Shown here: positions 1,877 through 61,374 of the stretch, in pieces
Layout: every line of letters starts with the position of its first letter
How positions within the stretch are numbered: position 1 is the stretch's first letter
DNA from: Candidatus Nomurabacteria bacterium
GTDB taxonomy: Bacteria; Patescibacteriota; Minisyncoccia; Phycocordibacterales; UBA918
Length of the DNA stretch: 64,000 bases
Reading direction: 5' to 3'
NCBI GenBank assembly: GCA_020631995.1
Contig: JACKGJ010000001.1
Span: forward strand, 97,753-161,752
Translations under genes and position numbers: made by a program
Notes under the pieces: generated by a model
The model's input: only the letters and a program-made list of their open reading frames with translations
Told to the model about the DNA's origin: nothing
Database searches by the model: none

Positions 1877-3064
1877 ATGAAGATTTTATCTATCGAAACC
1901 TCCTGCGACGAAACAGCCGTAAGCCTTATCGAGGTCATAGGTGACTTTCCTAATGCTGAGTACAAGATTCTGGGAAACGCTCTGTTCTCGCAAATTGATA
2001 TTCATCGTGAATACGGTGGTGTATTCCCAGCAGTGGCTAAACGCGAACATGCCAAGACATTGGTCCCTATGCTCAAAAAAACCCTTGATGAAGGATTCTC
2101 TGAGACATCCAACAAATCTACAAACTCGACAATACCATCGATTGAAATTATGGCCGAGTTACTTGAGAGAGAGATAGGGTTGTTTGATGAACTTAAAAGT
2201 TACTATGAGACTCACAACAAACCCGATATTGACCTGATTGCAGTCACTGCTGGCCCTGGCCTTGAACCTACCCTTTGGGTTGGAGTGAATTTCGCCAAAG
2301 CTCTGGCTTTACTCTGGAACATACCTGTTGTCGGAGTGAATCATATGGAGGGTCATGTGCTGTCTTCTGTGTTTGATGGTGAGCACTTAGCAAAACTACA
2401 ATTCCCTGCGCTGTCACTTTTAATCTCAGGTGGACATACCGAACTAATTAAAATGGACGACTGGTCTAGTTACCAAAAAGTTGGACAGACCCGCGACGAC
2501 GCTGTTGGAGAAGCCTTTGATAAGGTTGCAAGATTGGTGGGACTCCCATATCCGGGTGGTCCAGAAATAAGTCGCTTAGCGAGCGAAGCTCGAGGCGTCA
2601 ACTTGTCTTTGTTCCAGAAACTCCCGCGCCCGATGCTCGACTCTAAAGATTTAGATTTCTCTTTCTCAGGTCTTAAGACAGCTGTACGATACGCAGTACA
2701 AGACAAAGAACTAACCGGAGATGAGATTCGTTCTGTGGCGAGAGAATTTGAAGACGCTGTCACTGAAGTACTGCTTAAAAAGACTGAGGAAGCAATCAAT
2801 ACATATAATATTAAGTCACTAATCCTTGGTGGCGGTGTATCAGCCAATAGCTACATCCGCAATACCTTCACTGAGTTCTTTAAGCGTGAATATCCAGACC
2901 TTACGTTATATCTACCTGACCCTAAACTATCTACCGATAACAGCATAATGATTGCCCTCGCAGGGCACAGAAGAGCCTCTGAGGCGCTAGCACCCAACAC
3001 TGAGGCTCTTGCTACACTTGTCGCTTCTGGCAACCGCTCACTTTCAGAGGAGTCGAGTCTGTGA
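1877..3064 (+). CDS. tsaD: tRNA N6-adenosine threonylcarbamoyltransferase TsaD (Kae1/Gcp family)
   Basis: MKILSIETSCDETAV start, NHMEGH metal motif. Start moved to the internal ATG at 1877 because the track start at 1832 would overlap the divergent MYG1 gene. Ends in TGA. Confidence 0.85.
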   Translation: MKILSIETSCDETAVSLIEVIGDFPNAEYKILGNALFSQIDIHREYGGVFPAVAKREHAKTLVPMLKKTLDEGFSETSNKSTNSTIPSIEIMAELLEREIGLFDELKSYYETHNKPDIDLIAVTAGPGLEPTLWVGVNFAKALALLWNIPVVGVNHMEGHVLSSVFDGEHLAKLQFPALSLLISGGHTELIKMDDWSSYQKVGQTRDDAVGEAFDKVARLVGLPYPGGPEISRLASEARGVNLSLFQKLPRPMLDSKDLDFSFSGLKTAVRYAVQDKELTGDEIRSVAREFEDAVTEVLLKKTEEAINTYNIKSLILGGGVSANSYIRNTFTEFFKREYPDLTLYLPDPKLSTDNSIMIALAGHRRASEALAPNTEALATLVASGNRSLSEESSL

Positions 3065-3079
3065 TAAATTGACTAAGTT

Positions 3080-5269
3080 ATGGAACCCAAAGAAAACGCT
3101 ATAAATCCAGACTTTTTGAAGCCCTATTCCCCTCAGGACAATGAGAAGAATTTGTATAAAAAGTGGGAGGAATCAGGATACTTCAATCCTGATGTCTGTA
3201 TTGAGAGAGGAATCACTGCATCTGATGCTGAGACATTCTCTATTGTGCTTCCTCCACCAAACGTGACTGGAGTACTTCATATGGGTCACGCAGCCATGTT
3301 GGCCGTTGAGGATCTACTAGTGCGTTACCACCGAATGCTCGGCAAGCGTACCTTGTGGATTCCTGGCACCGACTCAGCAGCCATCGCTACTCAGTCAAAG
3401 GTAGAAGGTGAAATCTATAAAAAAGAAAAAAAGACACGACATGATATCGGCCGTGATGAACTCCTTAAAAGAGTAGGAGAATTTGCTGAAGCTAGCAAAG
3501 ACACAATCATTAGTCAGACCAAGAGTATGGGCTCGAGTTTAGACTGGAGTCGTTATGCATACACACTAGATGAAACGCGGTACAAAGCGGTAATGGAAGC
3601 TTTCATGCGGATGTATGATGCCGGACTTATTTACCGTGGTGAGAGGATTGTTAACTGGGACCCAAAGGGACAAACGACCATTTCTGATGATGAGATTGTT
3701 CATGAAGAACGTAAAGAGAAATTCTACTACTTAAAGTACGGACCATTCACTATTGGTACATCACGACCCGAGACAAAGTTTGGTGACAAGTATGTAGTGA
3801 TGCATCCAGACGACGCTCGATATAAGGAGTATGAGCATGGCCAAACGCTTGAACTCGAGTGGATTAATGGACCAATTACCGCCACTGTAATCAAGGATGA
3901 GGCAATTGATATGGAGTTTGGTACTGGTGTAATGACAATCACTCCGTGGCATGATGCAACTGACTTTGAGATTGCAGGTCGTCATAACTTAGATAAGGAA
4001 CAAGTTATTGATGAGCGTGGAATACTACTTCCTATTGCTGGTGAATTTGCAGGTCAACATATTAAGAAGGCGCGTGAAAACATTCTCGAAAAACTTCGCA
4101 GTAAAGGTCTACTGGAGAAAGAAGAGGACTATACACACAACGTTTCAACTGCAGAACGTACCGGCGAGGTTATCGAGCCACAAATTAAGGCCCAGTGGTT
4201 TATTGCAGTTAACAAGAAAGTTGAGTTCCCTGACGGAAGAGTGATGACCCTTAAGGAGCGTATGCGTGAAGCTGTCGAAGGTGAGGAAATAAAGATAGCG
4301 CCAGACCGTTTCAATAAAACCTACTATCACTGGATAGATAACTTACGTGACTGGAACATCTCTCGTCAGATTTGGTTCGGACATCGGGTTCCAGCGTGGT
4401 TCACAGGAAACGAAGTAAAAGTACAAATTGAGTCACCGGGAGAAGGTTGGGAGCAAGATCCTGACACACTGGATACTTGGTTCTCTTCTGGGCTTTGGAC
4501 TTTCTCGACTCTTGGTTGGCCAGAGGAGACAGCAGATTTCAAAACTTACCACCCAACCACTGTCTTAGAGACAGGTTACGACATTTTATTCTTCTGGGTA
4601 GCAAGAATGATTTTGATGAGCACTTTCTTAGTAGGTGAGGTTCCTTTCAAGAATGTTTACCTACACGGTATGGTCCGAGATGGAAAAGGACAAAAAATGT
4701 CAAAGTCTAAAGGAAATATCATTGATCCTTTGGATATGATTGAAAAGTACGGTGCAGACGCAACTCGCTTATCACTAGTAGTGGGAGCTGCTCCAGGGAA
4801 TGACGTACCTCTTTCTGAAGATAAGATTCGCGGCTACAAACACTTCGCTAATAAACTCTGGAACATTAGTCGTTTTGTACTTACTAACACAGAGGGGAAA
4901 AAAGATATTGATAAGTCTTTACTTTCCCCACGTGACCAGGAAATATTAGATGGATTTTACACTGTCGCTAAAGAAGTAGGTGACGATATTGAAAAATTCG
5001 GCTTATACCTTGCAGCCGACAAAGCTTACCATTATGTATGGGATGAACTGGCTGCAAAAATACTCGAGGAATCAAAGCCAATACTAAATGGTGACGATAG
5101 TGAAGCAAAACAAGCACGCCAGCAAGTTTTAATTGAGTGTCTAATTGGTTCATTGAAACTCCTACATCCATTTATGCCGTTTGTAACTGAGGCTGTATGG
5201 CAGAGACTTCCAGAAGATATGAAGGATACTGAATTCTTGATGGTTGCAAAGTGGCCCACAAAGAACTAA
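3080..5269 (+). CDS. valS: valine--tRNA ligase (short form, 729 aa)
   Basis: PPPNVTGVLHMGHA (HIGH), KMSKSKGN (KMSKS), DTWFSSGLWTFSTLGWPE, WNISRQIWFGHRVPAW are ValRS-type class I motifs; lacks the long C-terminal coiled coil. Confidence 0.85.
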   Translation: MEPKENAINPDFLKPYSPQDNEKNLYKKWEESGYFNPDVCIERGITASDAETFSIVLPPPNVTGVLHMGHAAMLAVEDLLVRYHRMLGKRTLWIPGTDSAAIATQSKVEGEIYKKEKKTRHDIGRDELLKRVGEFAEASKDTIISQTKSMGSSLDWSRYAYTLDETRYKAVMEAFMRMYDAGLIYRGERIVNWDPKGQTTISDDEIVHEERKEKFYYLKYGPFTIGTSRPETKFGDKYVVMHPDDARYKEYEHGQTLELEWINGPITATVIKDEAIDMEFGTGVMTITPWHDATDFEIAGRHNLDKEQVIDERGILLPIAGEFAGQHIKKARENILEKLRSKGLLEKEEDYTHNVSTAERTGEVIEPQIKAQWFIAVNKKVEFPDGRVMTLKERMREAVEGEEIKIAPDRFNKTYYHWIDNLRDWNISRQIWFGHRVPAWFTGNEVKVQIESPGEGWEQDPDTLDTWFSSGLWTFSTLGWPEETADFKTYHPTTVLETGYDILFFWVARMILMSTFLVGEVPFKNVYLHGMVRDGKGQKMSKSKGNIIDPLDMIEKYGADATRLSLVVGAAPGNDVPLSEDKIRGYKHFANKLWNISRFVLTNTEGKKDIDKSLLSPRDQEILDGFYTVAKEVGDDIEKFGLYLAADKAYHYVWDELAAKILEESKPILNGDDSEAKQARQQVLIECLIGSLKLLHPFMPFVTEAVWQRLPEDMKDTEFLMVAKWPTKN

Positions 5270-29221: not shown

Positions 29222-29384
29222 AATTTGTGTCGACGGGAGGGATGAAGCTTACAGCTTCCGTACACCTTTTCGATATTTCCTTTCATTACTTCAGGAAATA
29301 TCTGAAAAGGTCATCATTCTCTCCCGCGCACAAAATCACTCTTGCGCAAAGCTCCATGCATTCGCTTTACGCTCGGTGTTTTTG
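29222..29384 (+). repeat. tRNA-Met-linked composite element (family 1 core plus direct and inverted copies of the tRNA 3' half)
   Basis: 19-nt exact direct repeat TTTGTGTCGACGGGAGGGA at 29224-29242 and 29381-29399 (the latter inside the tRNA). GAAGCT-TAC-AGCTTC hairpin, GTACACC, 17-bp hairpin, then inverted copy TCATCATTCTCTCCCGCGCACAAAAT at 29311-29336. Confidence 0.7.
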
Positions 29385-29458
29385 TGTCGACGGGAGGGAA
29401 TGATCCTCCGACCTCGGCTTTATGAGTGCCGCGCTCTAACCAACTGAGCTACGTCGAC
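29385..29458 (-). tRNA. tRNA-Met or tRNA-Ile2 (anticodon CAT), elongator type
   Basis: Acceptor GTCGACG/CGTCGAC, D stem GCTC/GAGC (Y11:R24), anticodon loop CTCATAA, T arm GGAGG-ATCATTC-CCTCC (unusual A54/T58). Confidence 0.8.
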
Positions 29459-29500: not shown

Positions 29501-29532
29501 AAACCAAAAAGCTACGCACAGCGTAGCTTTTT
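29501..29532 (-). terminator. terminator after the intron-containing tRNA
   Basis: AAAAAGCTACGC-TGT-GCGTAGCTTTTTGG on the minus strand. Confidence 0.75.
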
Positions 29533-29540
29533 GTTTCTTG

Positions 29541-29872
29541 TTGCGGGGCCTGGAATTGAACCAGGGTCTGGAGGTTCTGTTATTCGCTCACTTTCATGAG
29601 TGCATGGACTATCCCATATTCCTGGATTAAAATATCCTTAGGAACTCTCCATTATAGTCTCTGAACCTTCCGTCTGCTTTCGCAGAGGGCTTGGCTGCCG
29701 ATTGCCGAATCTTTACTTTTTTAAAGCATTCACACTCACCCTCTCAGGTCATGTTGTAGCAAGCAAAGCTCTAACGGTATTCCAGCAATTTAGAAGATTT
29801 TTCCATACCGCATTACTGCGATAGGTCACAGTTTCCTATGAGCCTCCCGAGGTACCACTCCTCTACCCCGCT
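29541..29872 (-). tRNA. tRNA(CAT) with initiator-like features, interrupted by a group I intron (exons 29872-29838 and 29576-29541)
   Basis: Spliced sequence gives AGCGGGG-TA-GAGG-AGTGGTA-CCTC-G-GGAGG-CTCATAA-CCTCC-AGAC-CCTGG-TTCAATT-CCAGG-CCCCGCA-A. Features: 1:72 mismatch (A:A) and A11:T24. Confidence 0.8.
29577..29837 (-). ncRNA. group I self-splicing intron (261 nt, no ORF) in the anticodon loop after CAU
   Basis: 5' exon ends in U and the intron ends in G. P1 UCAU/GUGA; P2 hairpin AUCGCA-GUAA-UGCGGU. Classical P/Q/R/S elements: AAAUUGCUGGAAU, AAUCGGCAGCC, GGUUCAGAGACUAUAAUGG, GGGAUAGUCC. Confidence 0.8.
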
Positions 29873-29974
29873 GTGTGCTGAAAGATTGTACCACTTACTA
29901 CCTAAAAGTCCAGCATTATCTCTTTGTGTAAGAAGCCTAAAATTTAGACGATTTCGAGGCACGCGAGGAAAATG

Positions 29975-51109: not shown

Positions 51110-51346
51110 TCTAGAATATTACATCCTCCTTGATTCACTGCGTTCATCTGCGGAGGATGTGAGATTCGGTCACTCTTATGGATATTTTGTATTACTTCGC
51201 TCACAAAATATCTCATTCGCTCAACCCCACCTCACTCGCCTCCGGCATCGTTCCGGTTTTCGAATCTCACCGCGAGACACGCAGGTGTCTCGCTCATCCT
51301 CCGCGAATACAAAAAAGTCGCCAAATGGCGCGCTAATTTGTATTCG
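51110..51346 (+). repeat. tRNA-Ser(ACU)-linked composite element
   Basis: 19-nt exact direct repeat GCGGAGGATGTGAGATTCG (51150-51168 vs 51346-51364 in the tRNA). Hairpin GGATATTTTGT/ACAAAATATC. GGCATCGTTCCGGTTTT module. Inverted copy CGAATCTCAC, 25-nt hairpin, ATCCTCCGCGAATACAAA (18-bp perfect with 51337-51354). Confidence 0.7.
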
Positions 51347-51433
51347 CGGAGGATGTGAGATTCGAACTCACGGGCGGTTTTACCCGCCGGCGGTTTAGTA
51401 AACCGCTGGTTTAAACCACTCACCCAATCCTCC
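51347..51433 (-). tRNA. type II tRNA, Ser-like, anticodon reads ACT (unusual)
   Basis: Acceptor GGAGGAT/ATCCTCC, discriminator G, anticodon stem GCGGT/ACCGC with loop TTACTAA, long variable arm GGCGG-GTAAAA-CCGCC, T arm GTGAG-TTCGAAT-CTCAC. Confidence 0.7.
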
Positions 51434-51493: not shown

Positions 51494-51677
51494 ATGGAAA
51501 TTTATTTACATTTCCGAACGAACGCTGAAAGAAAGCTTGCTTACAGAGCAGTACACCTTTTGGATATTTTATTTCACTTTGCTCATAAACTATCTCAAAA
51601 GGTCTTCGAATCCCTCCTTTTCTCGCAGAATATAATCACAAAAAGCTCCGAGCATTCGCTTTTTGTTCTTTATTCTG
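51494..51677 (+). repeat. tRNA-Ser(GCU)-linked composite element
   Basis: GTACACC plus hairpin ACCTTTTGGATATTTTAT/ATAAACTATCTCAAAAGGT. Then TTCGAATCCCTCCTTTTC(t)CGCAGAATA at 51605-51632, a near-perfect reverse complement of tRNA nt 51671-51697. Loop motif AAGCTCCGAGCATTCGCTTT shared with the Met locus. Confidence 0.7.
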
Positions 51678-51764
51678 CGGAAAAGGAGGGATTCGAACCC
51701 TCGAGGGTTTTAACACCCTACCTCCTTAGCAAGGAGGCACATTCGACCACTCTGACACTTTTCC
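51678..51764 (-). tRNA. tRNA-Ser (anticodon GCT)
   Basis: Acceptor GGAAAAG/CTTTTCC, discriminator G, anticodon stem CCTCC/GGAGG with loop TTGCTAA, long variable arm, T arm GAGGG-TTCGAAT-CCCTC. Confidence 0.85.
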
Positions 51765-57024: not shown

Positions 57025-57052
57025 TAACCCTGCGTGGCGTTTAAAAACTCTG

Positions 57053-57126
57053 TCCGCCCTCTTGGATTTGAACCAAGGACCCCAGAGGTATAAGCTCTGT
57101 GCTCTAACCAACTGAGCTAAGGGCGG
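57053..57126 (-). tRNA. tRNA-Ile (anticodon TAT)
   Basis: Acceptor CCGCCCT/AGGGCGG (C1:G72), D arm GCTC-AGTTGGTTA-GAGC, anticodon stem CAGAG/CTCTG with loop CTTATAC, T arm CTTGG-TTCAAAT-CCAAG. Confidence 0.8.
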
Positions 57127-60994: not shown

Positions 60995-61374
60995 GGGGAT
61001 GACAGGCATCGACGGTTTGCATCGTTCATCCACGCAATGCCGAAATTGGAATCAATTCGTTAAGAGGTTCCATCTGTATCTGCAAACAAAGCAATACCAA
61101 GTCCGTTCTCATACGGATTCGCCTTCGCTCGAGCGTAAGTTCGCGTAGGTGACGCTAACCCGCCCTATGTCTAATAAGGTGGCGTTAGTGGAATAGCATT
61201 AGGCTCTAGATAATTAATTTGTTCCATTAGTTATCCGAATTGTTAGGGACTGCTCGCAGTGAGGTTTTGCTAAATTTTTCACTCACTACGCTAAGATTAA
61301 AACTTAGCTATGCATTGTAGAAGTGTATGGACGACCATTCTCGGACGGGAGTTCAACTCTCCCCATCTCCACCA
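60995..61374 (+). ncRNA. ssrA: tmRNA (SsrA)
   Basis: 5' GGGGATGACAGGCATCGACGG, 3' GGACGGGAGTTCAACTCTCCCCATCTCCACCA with G3:U70. Tag ORF 61082-61138 encodes ANKAIPSPFSYGFAFARA*. Confidence 0.92.

Follow-up and report, generated by a model that had tools for sequence, protein, structure and literature searches.

A group I intron behind the anticodon of an initiator-like tRNA(CAU) gene in Candidatus Nomurabacteria and related bacteria

Group I introns in the anticodon loops of bacterial tRNAs are a classical and already known kind of element. The closest described cases include the intron of the Azoarcus tRNA-Ile(CAU) gene and that of the cyanobacterial tRNA-fMet gene, which in Synechocystis PCC 6803 is 655 nucleotides (nt) long and encodes I-Ssp6803I (PMC1995217); Table S5 of a recent survey likewise contains a 655-nt fMet intron at 33/34 (PMC13011429). 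In 2021, tRNAs of the Candidate Phyla Radiation (CPR) with group I introns were noted as hard to detect (PMC8172020), and in 2026 Nakagawa et al. surveyed 95 complete Patescibacteria genomes and found 22 tRNA introns, located at 35/36 in tRNA-Asn, tRNA-Asp and tRNA-Tyr and at 33/34 in tRNA-Met and tRNA-Phe, with three divergent tRNA-Thr introns at 36/37 given separately; no Patescibacteria tRNA intron was classed as IC, and the authors considered that draft genomes may yield more (PMC13011429). The present work deals with a 64,000-nt stretch of a Candidatus Nomurabacteria genome (assembly GCA_020631995.1, contig JACKGJ010000001.1, positions 97,753 to 161,752), referred to below as the window, in which a group I intron splits an initiator-like tRNA(CAU) gene directly after U36.

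The interrupted gene occupies positions 29872-29541 of the minus strand and consists of two exons separated by a 261-nt intron. The exons join to a 71-nt tRNA, CCA not being encoded at the end of the 3' exon, and the sequence spliced in silico is recognized by ARAGORN as a 71/72-nt tRNA-Met(CAU) with a normal cloverleaf. Scanning of the 64 kb with the Rfam group I model (RF00028, Intron_gpI) gave one match only, at this tRNA (29585-29849, minus strand), which covers the full model (1-253) with 61.4 bits (E = 3.8e-13), the gathering score being 50 bits. A check of both strands found neither a credible open reading frame (ORF) nor one longer than 40 amino acids (aa) inside the intron or extending across it, and likewise no homing endonuclease. 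These results fully bear out the features given in a preliminary description of this DNA, made from the letters alone, which had proposed exons giving a canonical 71-nt tRNA with anticodon CAU, a 261-nt ORF-less insert that follows U36 and ends in G, a P1 of UCAU/GUGA, a GNRA-capped P2 (GUAA) and the P, Q, R and S strings: its coordinates are right, all the named elements are present, the covariance model that it suggested as a check scores the intron above the gathering score, and its junction coincides with that of the intron-less alleles described below. The covariance model, the covariation among relatives, the intron-less alleles and the identity elements of the tRNA together argue very strongly for a group I intron that splits an initiator-like tRNA(CAU) after U36.

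The exact position of the junction is fixed by intron-less alleles of the gene, because these equal the predicted ligated exons. On related metagenomic contigs, the loci L013 (6077-6147), L008 (4067-4137), L015 and L019 all read ...GGCUCAUAACCUCC..., the intron-less tRNA of L013 (57.4 bits with RF00005) being identical to the spliced product of the window at 69 of 71 positions; a further ten intron-less alleles were found besides these four, and 19 relatives with the intron and 14 without it have identical or nearly identical 5' halves. The annotation program arrived at other results. Default ARAGORN lists eleven RNA genes in the window and misses the interrupted one, and its intron mode slides the junction by 2 nt, reporting a tRNA-Leu(CAG) at this gene and at nine homologues. 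A junction two bases upstream, with the intron at 34/35 of a tRNA-Leu(CAG), would leave the intron length equal; the 5' splice site would, however, then follow a C, and the intron would end in a C as well, whereas in group I splicing a U (paired as U.G) precedes the 5' site and a G ends the intron. Moreover, neither the U36.G wobble nor the terminal G varies (19/19), the cloverleaf lacks the long variable arm required by a tRNA-Leu, and the intron-less alleles read CUCAUAA. The tRNA-Leu(CAG) was thus rejected, on the basis of both the group I rules and the intron-less alleles.

Further evidence for a group I fold after U36 comes from an alignment of 19 sequences, to which a P1-P9 structure drawn from the window sequence was applied. 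Standard pairs occupy 95.5% of the cells, and double changes occur in 43 of the 74 pairs. The covariation score is 0.407, compared with 0.168 in shuffles, and none of 500 shuffles reaches 0.407, counts which are not probabilities because the aligned sequences are related. When the 3' partners are moved by 1-3 columns, pairing falls to 36-44%, a control in which the structure has an advantage, its source being one of the sequences in the alignment. No variation is seen in the U36.G wobble, the terminal G, P4, P7 or J8/7, as is expected of U36.G, P4, P7 and J8/7 in a group I catalytic core. The coordinates of the gene, of the helices and of the neighbouring features are collected in Table 1.

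Table 1. Coordinates in the window of the interrupted tRNA(CAU) gene, of its intron elements and of adjacent features
Feature	Position	Strand	Remarks
5' exon	29872-29838	-	35 nt, tRNA positions 1-36, AGCGGGGUAGAGGAGUGGUACCUCGGGAGGCUCAU; ends ...GGCUCAU, anticodon CAU last
Intron	29837-29577	-	261 nt, group I, from AGGAAACUGUGACC to GAAUAACAG; RF00028 and covariation
P1 extension	29837-29830	-	first 8 nt of the intron, AGGAAACU, GAAA-capped
Internal guide sequence GUGACC	29824-29829	-	pairs with exon G30/G31-U36 as P1, U36.G at the 5' splice site
P2 hairpin UAUCGCA-GUAA-UGCGGUA	29806-29823	-	7/7 pairs changed on both sides; 96% of cells paired
P3 5' strand UCUUC	29793-29797	-	partner GGAGA; double changes in 4/5 pairs; 100% paired
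P4 5' strand UGCUGG	29782-29787	-	partner UCGGCA 29701-29696; invariant, 100% paired; P/Q elements
P5 and P5abc-like extension	29705-29777	-	73 nt; helices supported by covariation
P6/P6a hairpin CC-C-UCUGC-GAAA-GCAGA-C-GG	29670-29689	-	double changes in 6/7 pairs
P7 5' strand G(A)GACUA	29655-29661	-	bulged A; partner UAGUCC; invariant, 100% paired; R/S elements
P3 3' strand GGAGA	29646-29650	-	partner UCUUC
P8 hairpin UUCCU-AA-GGAU...AUCC-AGGAA	29619-29644	-	double changes in 6/9 pairs; distal part varies in length
P7 3' strand UAGUCC	29606-29611	-	after J8/7 UAUGGGA (29618-29612); columns invariant
P9 hairpin CUCAU-GAAA-GUGAG	29587-29600	-	double changes in 5/5 pairs
Intron 3' end C-A-G	29577-29579	-	terminal G at 29577; C and A pair with U-G 29604-29603 as P9.0
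3' exon	29576-29541	-	36 nt, tRNA positions 37-73, AACCUCCAGACCCUGGUUCAAUUCCAGGCCCCGCAA; AACCUCC...CCCCGCAA
Promoter-like site UGGACU-16 nt-UACAAU	29885-29912	-	TG before the -10 box; 9/12 consensus matches
G+C-rich hairpin with A-run and U-run flanks	29505-29533		8 nt after the tRNA; scored on the plus strand
Elongator-type tRNA(CAU), uninterrupted	29384-29458	-	G1-C72, C11:G24; RF00005 61.4 bits

Some of these elements deserve additional comment. In P1, the U.G, A-U and C-G pairs are invariant (19/19), and position 33 of the exon and its partner in the guide sequence covary, with U33-A in 16 sequences and C33-G in three, so that the intron tracks its host tRNA. The pairs of P9.0 also covary, pair 245-269 being G-C in 14 sequences, U-A in four and A-U in one, with U-A at pair 244-270 in 18. 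P7, presumed by analogy to be the guanosine-binding helix, forms a pseudoknot with P3. The P5 region is made up of P5 itself (CCG/CGG), an internal loop UUAGAG/GAUU, an 8-bp P5a with double changes in seven of its pairs, a distal arm capped by GAGA and an A-rich strand UUUAAAAA; the extension is missing or replaced in four of the homologues (L100, L110, L119 and L123). A population variant of the same species (L002, 5393-5657) differs from the window at two intron positions, which change a G.U of P5a into A-U and a C-G of P6 into C.A.

U33 is near-universal in tRNAs. Many initiator-type tRNAs of Patescibacteria have C33 instead, as seen in seven intron-less loci and in the intron-containing L100, L110 and L119, together with a T loop of UGCAAUU; where the intron is present, its guide sequence makes up for the change, with C33-G in place of U33-A.

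As regards the tRNA itself, the features of its sequence make it quite probable that the interrupted gene is an initiator. The acceptor stem has an A1.A72 mismatch, G2:C71, C3:G70, G4:C69 and A73; the D stem (GAGG/CCUC) contains A11:U24; and the anticodon stem (GGAGG/CCUCC), which holds G30:C40 and G31:C39 but A29:U41, carries the restored loop CUCAUAA. The mismatch, A11:U24 and the two of three G:C pairs had been described beforehand exactly as they are found. The determinants of the formyltransferase are the lack of a Watson-Crick pair at 1:72, G2:C71, C3:G70 and A73, and in initiators A11:U24 takes the place of the pyrimidine 11:purine 24 of elongators. Positions 2-7 and 66-73 (GCGGGG...CCCCGCAA) presumably equal those of the E. 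coli tRNA-fMet acceptor, position 1 alone being different (A for C). Moreover, a second, uninterrupted tRNA(CAU) begins 83 nt downstream of the interrupted gene, and since this one is of the elongator type, the interrupted gene would be the initiator-type member of the CAU pair.

Two other identities have to be considered for the same gene with the same intron, namely tRNA-Ile2 (with a lysidine-modified CAU) and a second elongator tRNA-Met. Such identities would agree with the Azoarcus intron, which at the same site sits in a tRNA-Ile(CAU), with an anticodon stem holding only two of the three G:C pairs, and with the label given to similar Microgenomatia genes in the 2026 survey, which is merely 'Met (CAT)' (PMC13011429). 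They are nevertheless improbable in view of the 1:72 mismatch together with G2:C71, C3:G70, G4:C69 and A73, and of A11:U24 as opposed to the C11:G24 and G1-C72 of the adjacent tRNA(CAU). Furthermore, the window holds a tRNA-Ile(UAU) gene (57052-57126, minus strand), whose product can read AUA, so that a lysidine-modified tRNA(CAU) is not needed, and distant relatives of the interrupted gene (L110, L119 and L123) possess the canonical C1.A72.

Certain observations weigh against the interpretation of this locus as an initiator tRNA gene split by a group I intron. The three consecutive G:C pairs (29-31:39-41) that mark initiators are reduced to two, and 1:72 is A.A in this clade rather than the usual bacterial C.A. 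Because only two of these pairs are present and 1:72 is A.A, the identity as initiator is probable rather than certain. A29:U41 also occurs in the intron-less homologues of the clade and, being shared by these alleles, characterizes the lineage rather than marking a defect of the window's copy; more distant Patescibacteria members of the same tRNA gene have C1.A72 or a weak U1-A72. The view of initiator genes covers 64 kb of the genome, and a second, uninterrupted initiator gene is possible. The minimum free energy fold of the single sequence (z = -2.64) shows some of the hairpins only (the GAGA-capped distal arm of the P5 extension, P6a and P9), the native pseudoknotted core being absent from it, as is usual for such RNA. 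Finally, comparison by nhmmer with introns labelled IC3, IB2 and IA1 and with the Patescibacteria set did not lead to a clear subgroup: with a profile of the intron family, the best matches were Patescibacteria tRNA-Asn introns (E = 3e-17 and 3e-13), and the longest alignment was obtained with IB2-labelled introns. Introns of subgroup IC3, typical of bacterial tRNAs, are compact and have no P5abc-type extension; the intron of the window has a P5 extension and no helices of the P7.1/P7.2 type. In view of the ambiguous nhmmer assignment, the label IC3 was not adopted.

The host of the gene can be recognized by its neighbours. The genes just upstream encode GatA and LigA proteins for which NCBI has identical entries under the name Candidatus Nomurabacteria bacterium, a taxon of the Parcubacteria group within the Patescibacteria group (NCBI taxonomy), in agreement with the reduced-genome lineage supposed in the preliminary description. 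Moreover, 7.4 kb of the window are identical to contig JACKGK010000003.1 of assembly GCA_020632025.1, and the neighbouring genes are syntenic, with 62-86% protein identity, to those of metagenome-assembled genomes (MAGs) labelled Paceibacterota, Parcubacteria, Patescibacteria or Saccharibacteria. The organism is so far known from DNA assemblies (SRR12358675, SRR12358676, SRR14493015 and ERZ27333130).

The distribution of the intron was followed in two sets of sequences. A metagenome scan with GatA provided 80 loci, and among the closest of these, three with GatA about 69% identical carry the same intron at the same site (L009, L011 and L012). A scan of GTDB, with one genome per species and the core pattern ATCGGCAGCCAAG-N(8-38)-GGTTCAGAGACTA, gave 37 hits, 16 of them initiator-type tRNA(CAU) genes split after U36. 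The window-type intron is thus present at the identical site in 19 other loci, three metagenomic and 16 from GTDB species representatives. The 16 are labelled Parcubacteria, Paceibacteria, Saccharibacteria, Yanofskybacteria, Nealsonbacteria or Patescibacteria, the exceptions being one other MAG and one Azotimanducaceae contig, and 11 of them pass the gathering score of RF00028, which the other five miss. The contig labelled Candidatus Azotimanducaceae (L097, JBLHGD010000003.1) bears a promoter of the Patescibacteria type, the initiator tRNA, the intron and a homologue of the 214-aa ORF of the window, and it is probably a mis-binned Patescibacteria contig. In another locus (L112, 4410-4526), a LOOT RNA (RF03000, 63.3 bits) adjoins the intron-containing tRNA.

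The remaining 21 hits of the GTDB scan are different introns. Five belong to Elusimicrobia tRNA(CAU) genes with a GCGCCCG... acceptor, not initiator-like, in which the intron lies at 33/34 and which ARAGORN misreads as Leu or Ser. Most of the others form one non-tRNA group, a group I-like conserved element in which additional helices follow P7. It was seen outside tRNA genes in fifteen loci, in most of which it begins a short way behind the stop codon of an ORF with the C-terminal sequence ...YHYEDGxYRxAYxLDRRFL; its hosts are Acidobacteriota, Bryobacterales, Thermoanaerobaculia, Sphaerisporangium (an actinomycete), Nannocystaceae and Stenomitos (a cyanobacterium).

Among the 20 GatA-linked loci with an initiator-type tRNA, 15 are intron-less, three have the 36/37 intron and two (L010 and L025) carry another group I intron, located at 33/34. 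It looks unrelated to the 36/37 intron and lies on the minus strand in both loci, that of L010 (about 2990-3291) scoring 64.6 bits with RF00028; within the phylum, one and the same tRNA is thus interrupted at either of two sites. The more similar two loci are in GatA, the more similar are their introns (Pearson 0.87, Spearman 0.64, for 78 non-independent pairs from 13 loci), and the gatA-ORF-tRNA synteny holds down to 46-52% GatA identity. The sequences fit a history of long vertical inheritance with sporadic precise loss, which appears to account for the present distribution. Scanning of viral contigs with the core pattern yielded seven hits, none with a detectable tRNA, so that no phage contig in that set carries this tRNA intron; the seven look like group I introns that lie within or next to protein-coding sequence.

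With respect to expression, the end of the promoter-like site lies 13 nt upstream of position 1 of the tRNA, and in relatives the corresponding upstream place is occupied by CTAGACA-N17-TAnAnT. Behind the gene, the hairpin read on the minus strand has a 7-bp core GCUACGC/GCGUAGC followed by UUUUUGGU, and relatives again have a hairpin with a U-run at the same place after the tRNA. This hairpin is probably a bidirectional intrinsic terminator and, judging from consensus matches only, the interrupted tRNA gene looks like a transcription unit of its own.

A pathway from this unit to the mature tRNA can be proposed by analogy with the intron family, from which catalysis, use as initiator and the function of promoter and terminator are deduced. 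Transcription from the gene's own promoter would give a precursor of about 340 nt, in which the guide sequence would pair with nucleotides 30-36 of the anticodon arm to form P1, leaving U36.G at the 5' splice site. A free guanosine nucleotide held in P7 would then attack after U36. The terminal G of the intron (29577), placed by P9.0, would next take the same P7 site, and the 3'-OH of U36 would attack after it, joining U36 to A37 and restoring the loop CUCAUAA. RNase P, 3' trimming and CCA addition would complete the tRNA.

It could be argued instead that the intron is a decaying remnant that no longer splices, in a pseudogene, with a functional initiator gene elsewhere in the genome. About 64 kb of the genome are visible, the intron has no homing endonuclease and its Rfam score is only 11 bits above the threshold, all of which would suit a decaying element. 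Such decay is very improbable, for the elements of the catalytic core are all invariant and compensatory changes have kept the helices intact in 19 lineages, in which GatA has only 49-76% identity to that of the window. In addition, the exons are as well conserved as the intron-less alleles, and the promoter-like and terminator-like signals have been kept.

The main immediate value of a group I intron at this place in the gene concerns annotation. Default ARAGORN omits the gene, the intron mode turns it into a tRNA-Leu(CAG) and five of 16 homologues lie under the Rfam gathering score; as a consequence of these misses and mis-calls, genomes of the clade seem to lack an initiator tRNA or hold a spurious tRNA-Leu. 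If no initiator gene other than the interrupted one existed, protein synthesis in these cells would run entirely through a ribozyme step, and they would offer a clean natural system in which to compare introns as tolerated parasites with introns as regulators. A wider proposal, which must be regarded as doubtful, is that in a large clade of the Parcubacteria group the single initiator tRNA gene is permanently split by a vertically inherited ribozyme that has a P5abc-like domain and co-evolves with the tRNA, so that every initiation needs self-splicing. Were this so, initiation would hinge on the supply of guanosine nucleotide and Mg2+ and on correct folding of the RNA, and a possible throttle on protein synthesis at the RNA level would exist in genome-reduced cells.

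Other RNA genes of the window were noted in passing. A well-formed tRNA-Ser(ACU) (51346-51433, minus strand; loop UUACUAA, A34) is found 240 nt away from a normal tRNA-Ser(GCU) (51677-51764). Bacteria do not usually have a serine tRNA with A34, which, if deaminated to inosine, could also read AGA. Further, a transfer-messenger RNA (60995-61374, plus strand; 107.8 bits) encodes the tag peptide ANKAIPSPFSYGFAFARA.

In the Azoarcus intron, P1 is extended and GNRA loops cap P2 and P9. It resembles the intron of the window in being bacterial and ORF-less and in lying in the anticodon loop, behind a 5' exon that ends in CAU and with a GUG guide (PMC2241849, PMC13168695); because both read CAU with a GUG guide, the two introns share the 36/37 site and the core of P1. 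They differ in the host, a tRNA-Ile in Azoarcus and an initiator-type tRNA in the window, and, as compared by description, in that the Azoarcus intron has 205 nt and no peripheral domains (PMC13168695), whereas the other has 261 nt and a 73-nt P5abc-like extension with an A-rich strand and a GAGA loop. The cyanobacterial tRNA-fMet intron has an initiator host, as here, but lies at 33/34 and not at 36/37 (PMC13011429), and in Synechocystis it contains a homing endonuclease, the intron of the window having no ORF. Of the two precedents for 36/37 put forward earlier, the Azoarcus tRNA-Ile(CAU) intron therefore holds, its guide pairing with CAU (PMC2241849), and the cyanobacterial fMet intron, at 33/34 (PMC13011429), does not.

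The earlier belief that such introns were undescribed in reduced-genome lineages was mistaken, given the CPR report of 2021 (PMC8172020) and the survey of 2026 (PMC13011429), and novelty is much weaker than was then held because both papers precede this work. The introns of the 2026 survey are, like that of the window, ORF-less elements of Patescibacteria anticodon loops, in tRNAs that annotation tools miss or mis-call, and they include two in initiator-like 'Met (CAT)' genes of Microgenomatia (PMC13011429). No initiator tRNA intron at 36/37 is found among the Patescibacteria introns of that survey (PMC13011429), and the signature strings of the window family are absent from its supplement, as represented by the whole Patescibacteria table and part of the all-bacteria table. 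The survey's introns of tRNA-Asn and tRNA-Asp have, as read from their sequences, extra helices between P7 and P3, which the intron of the window does not have.

A partial likeness is offered by IB2-labelled introns in tRNA-Lys(UUU) genes of Actinomycetota, found in Table S5, which share the arrangement P4 - AA - P5 - UUAGAGC...GAUU - GGCAAUC(A/G)GCAG and a P5 extension (PMC13011429). They give the longest stretch aligned to the profile of the window family (positions 24-243), in a match that is weak overall (E = 2e-07), and they differ in host tRNA, in site (34/35) and in P6 and P9. The kind of element is thus known, and what is new for the phylum is the combination of tRNA and site (an initiator, at 36/37) together with the intron family itself; the picture of 2026 is extended by an initiator tRNA interrupted at 36/37 and by a P5-extended family of introns in at least 16 species representatives and in metagenomic relatives.

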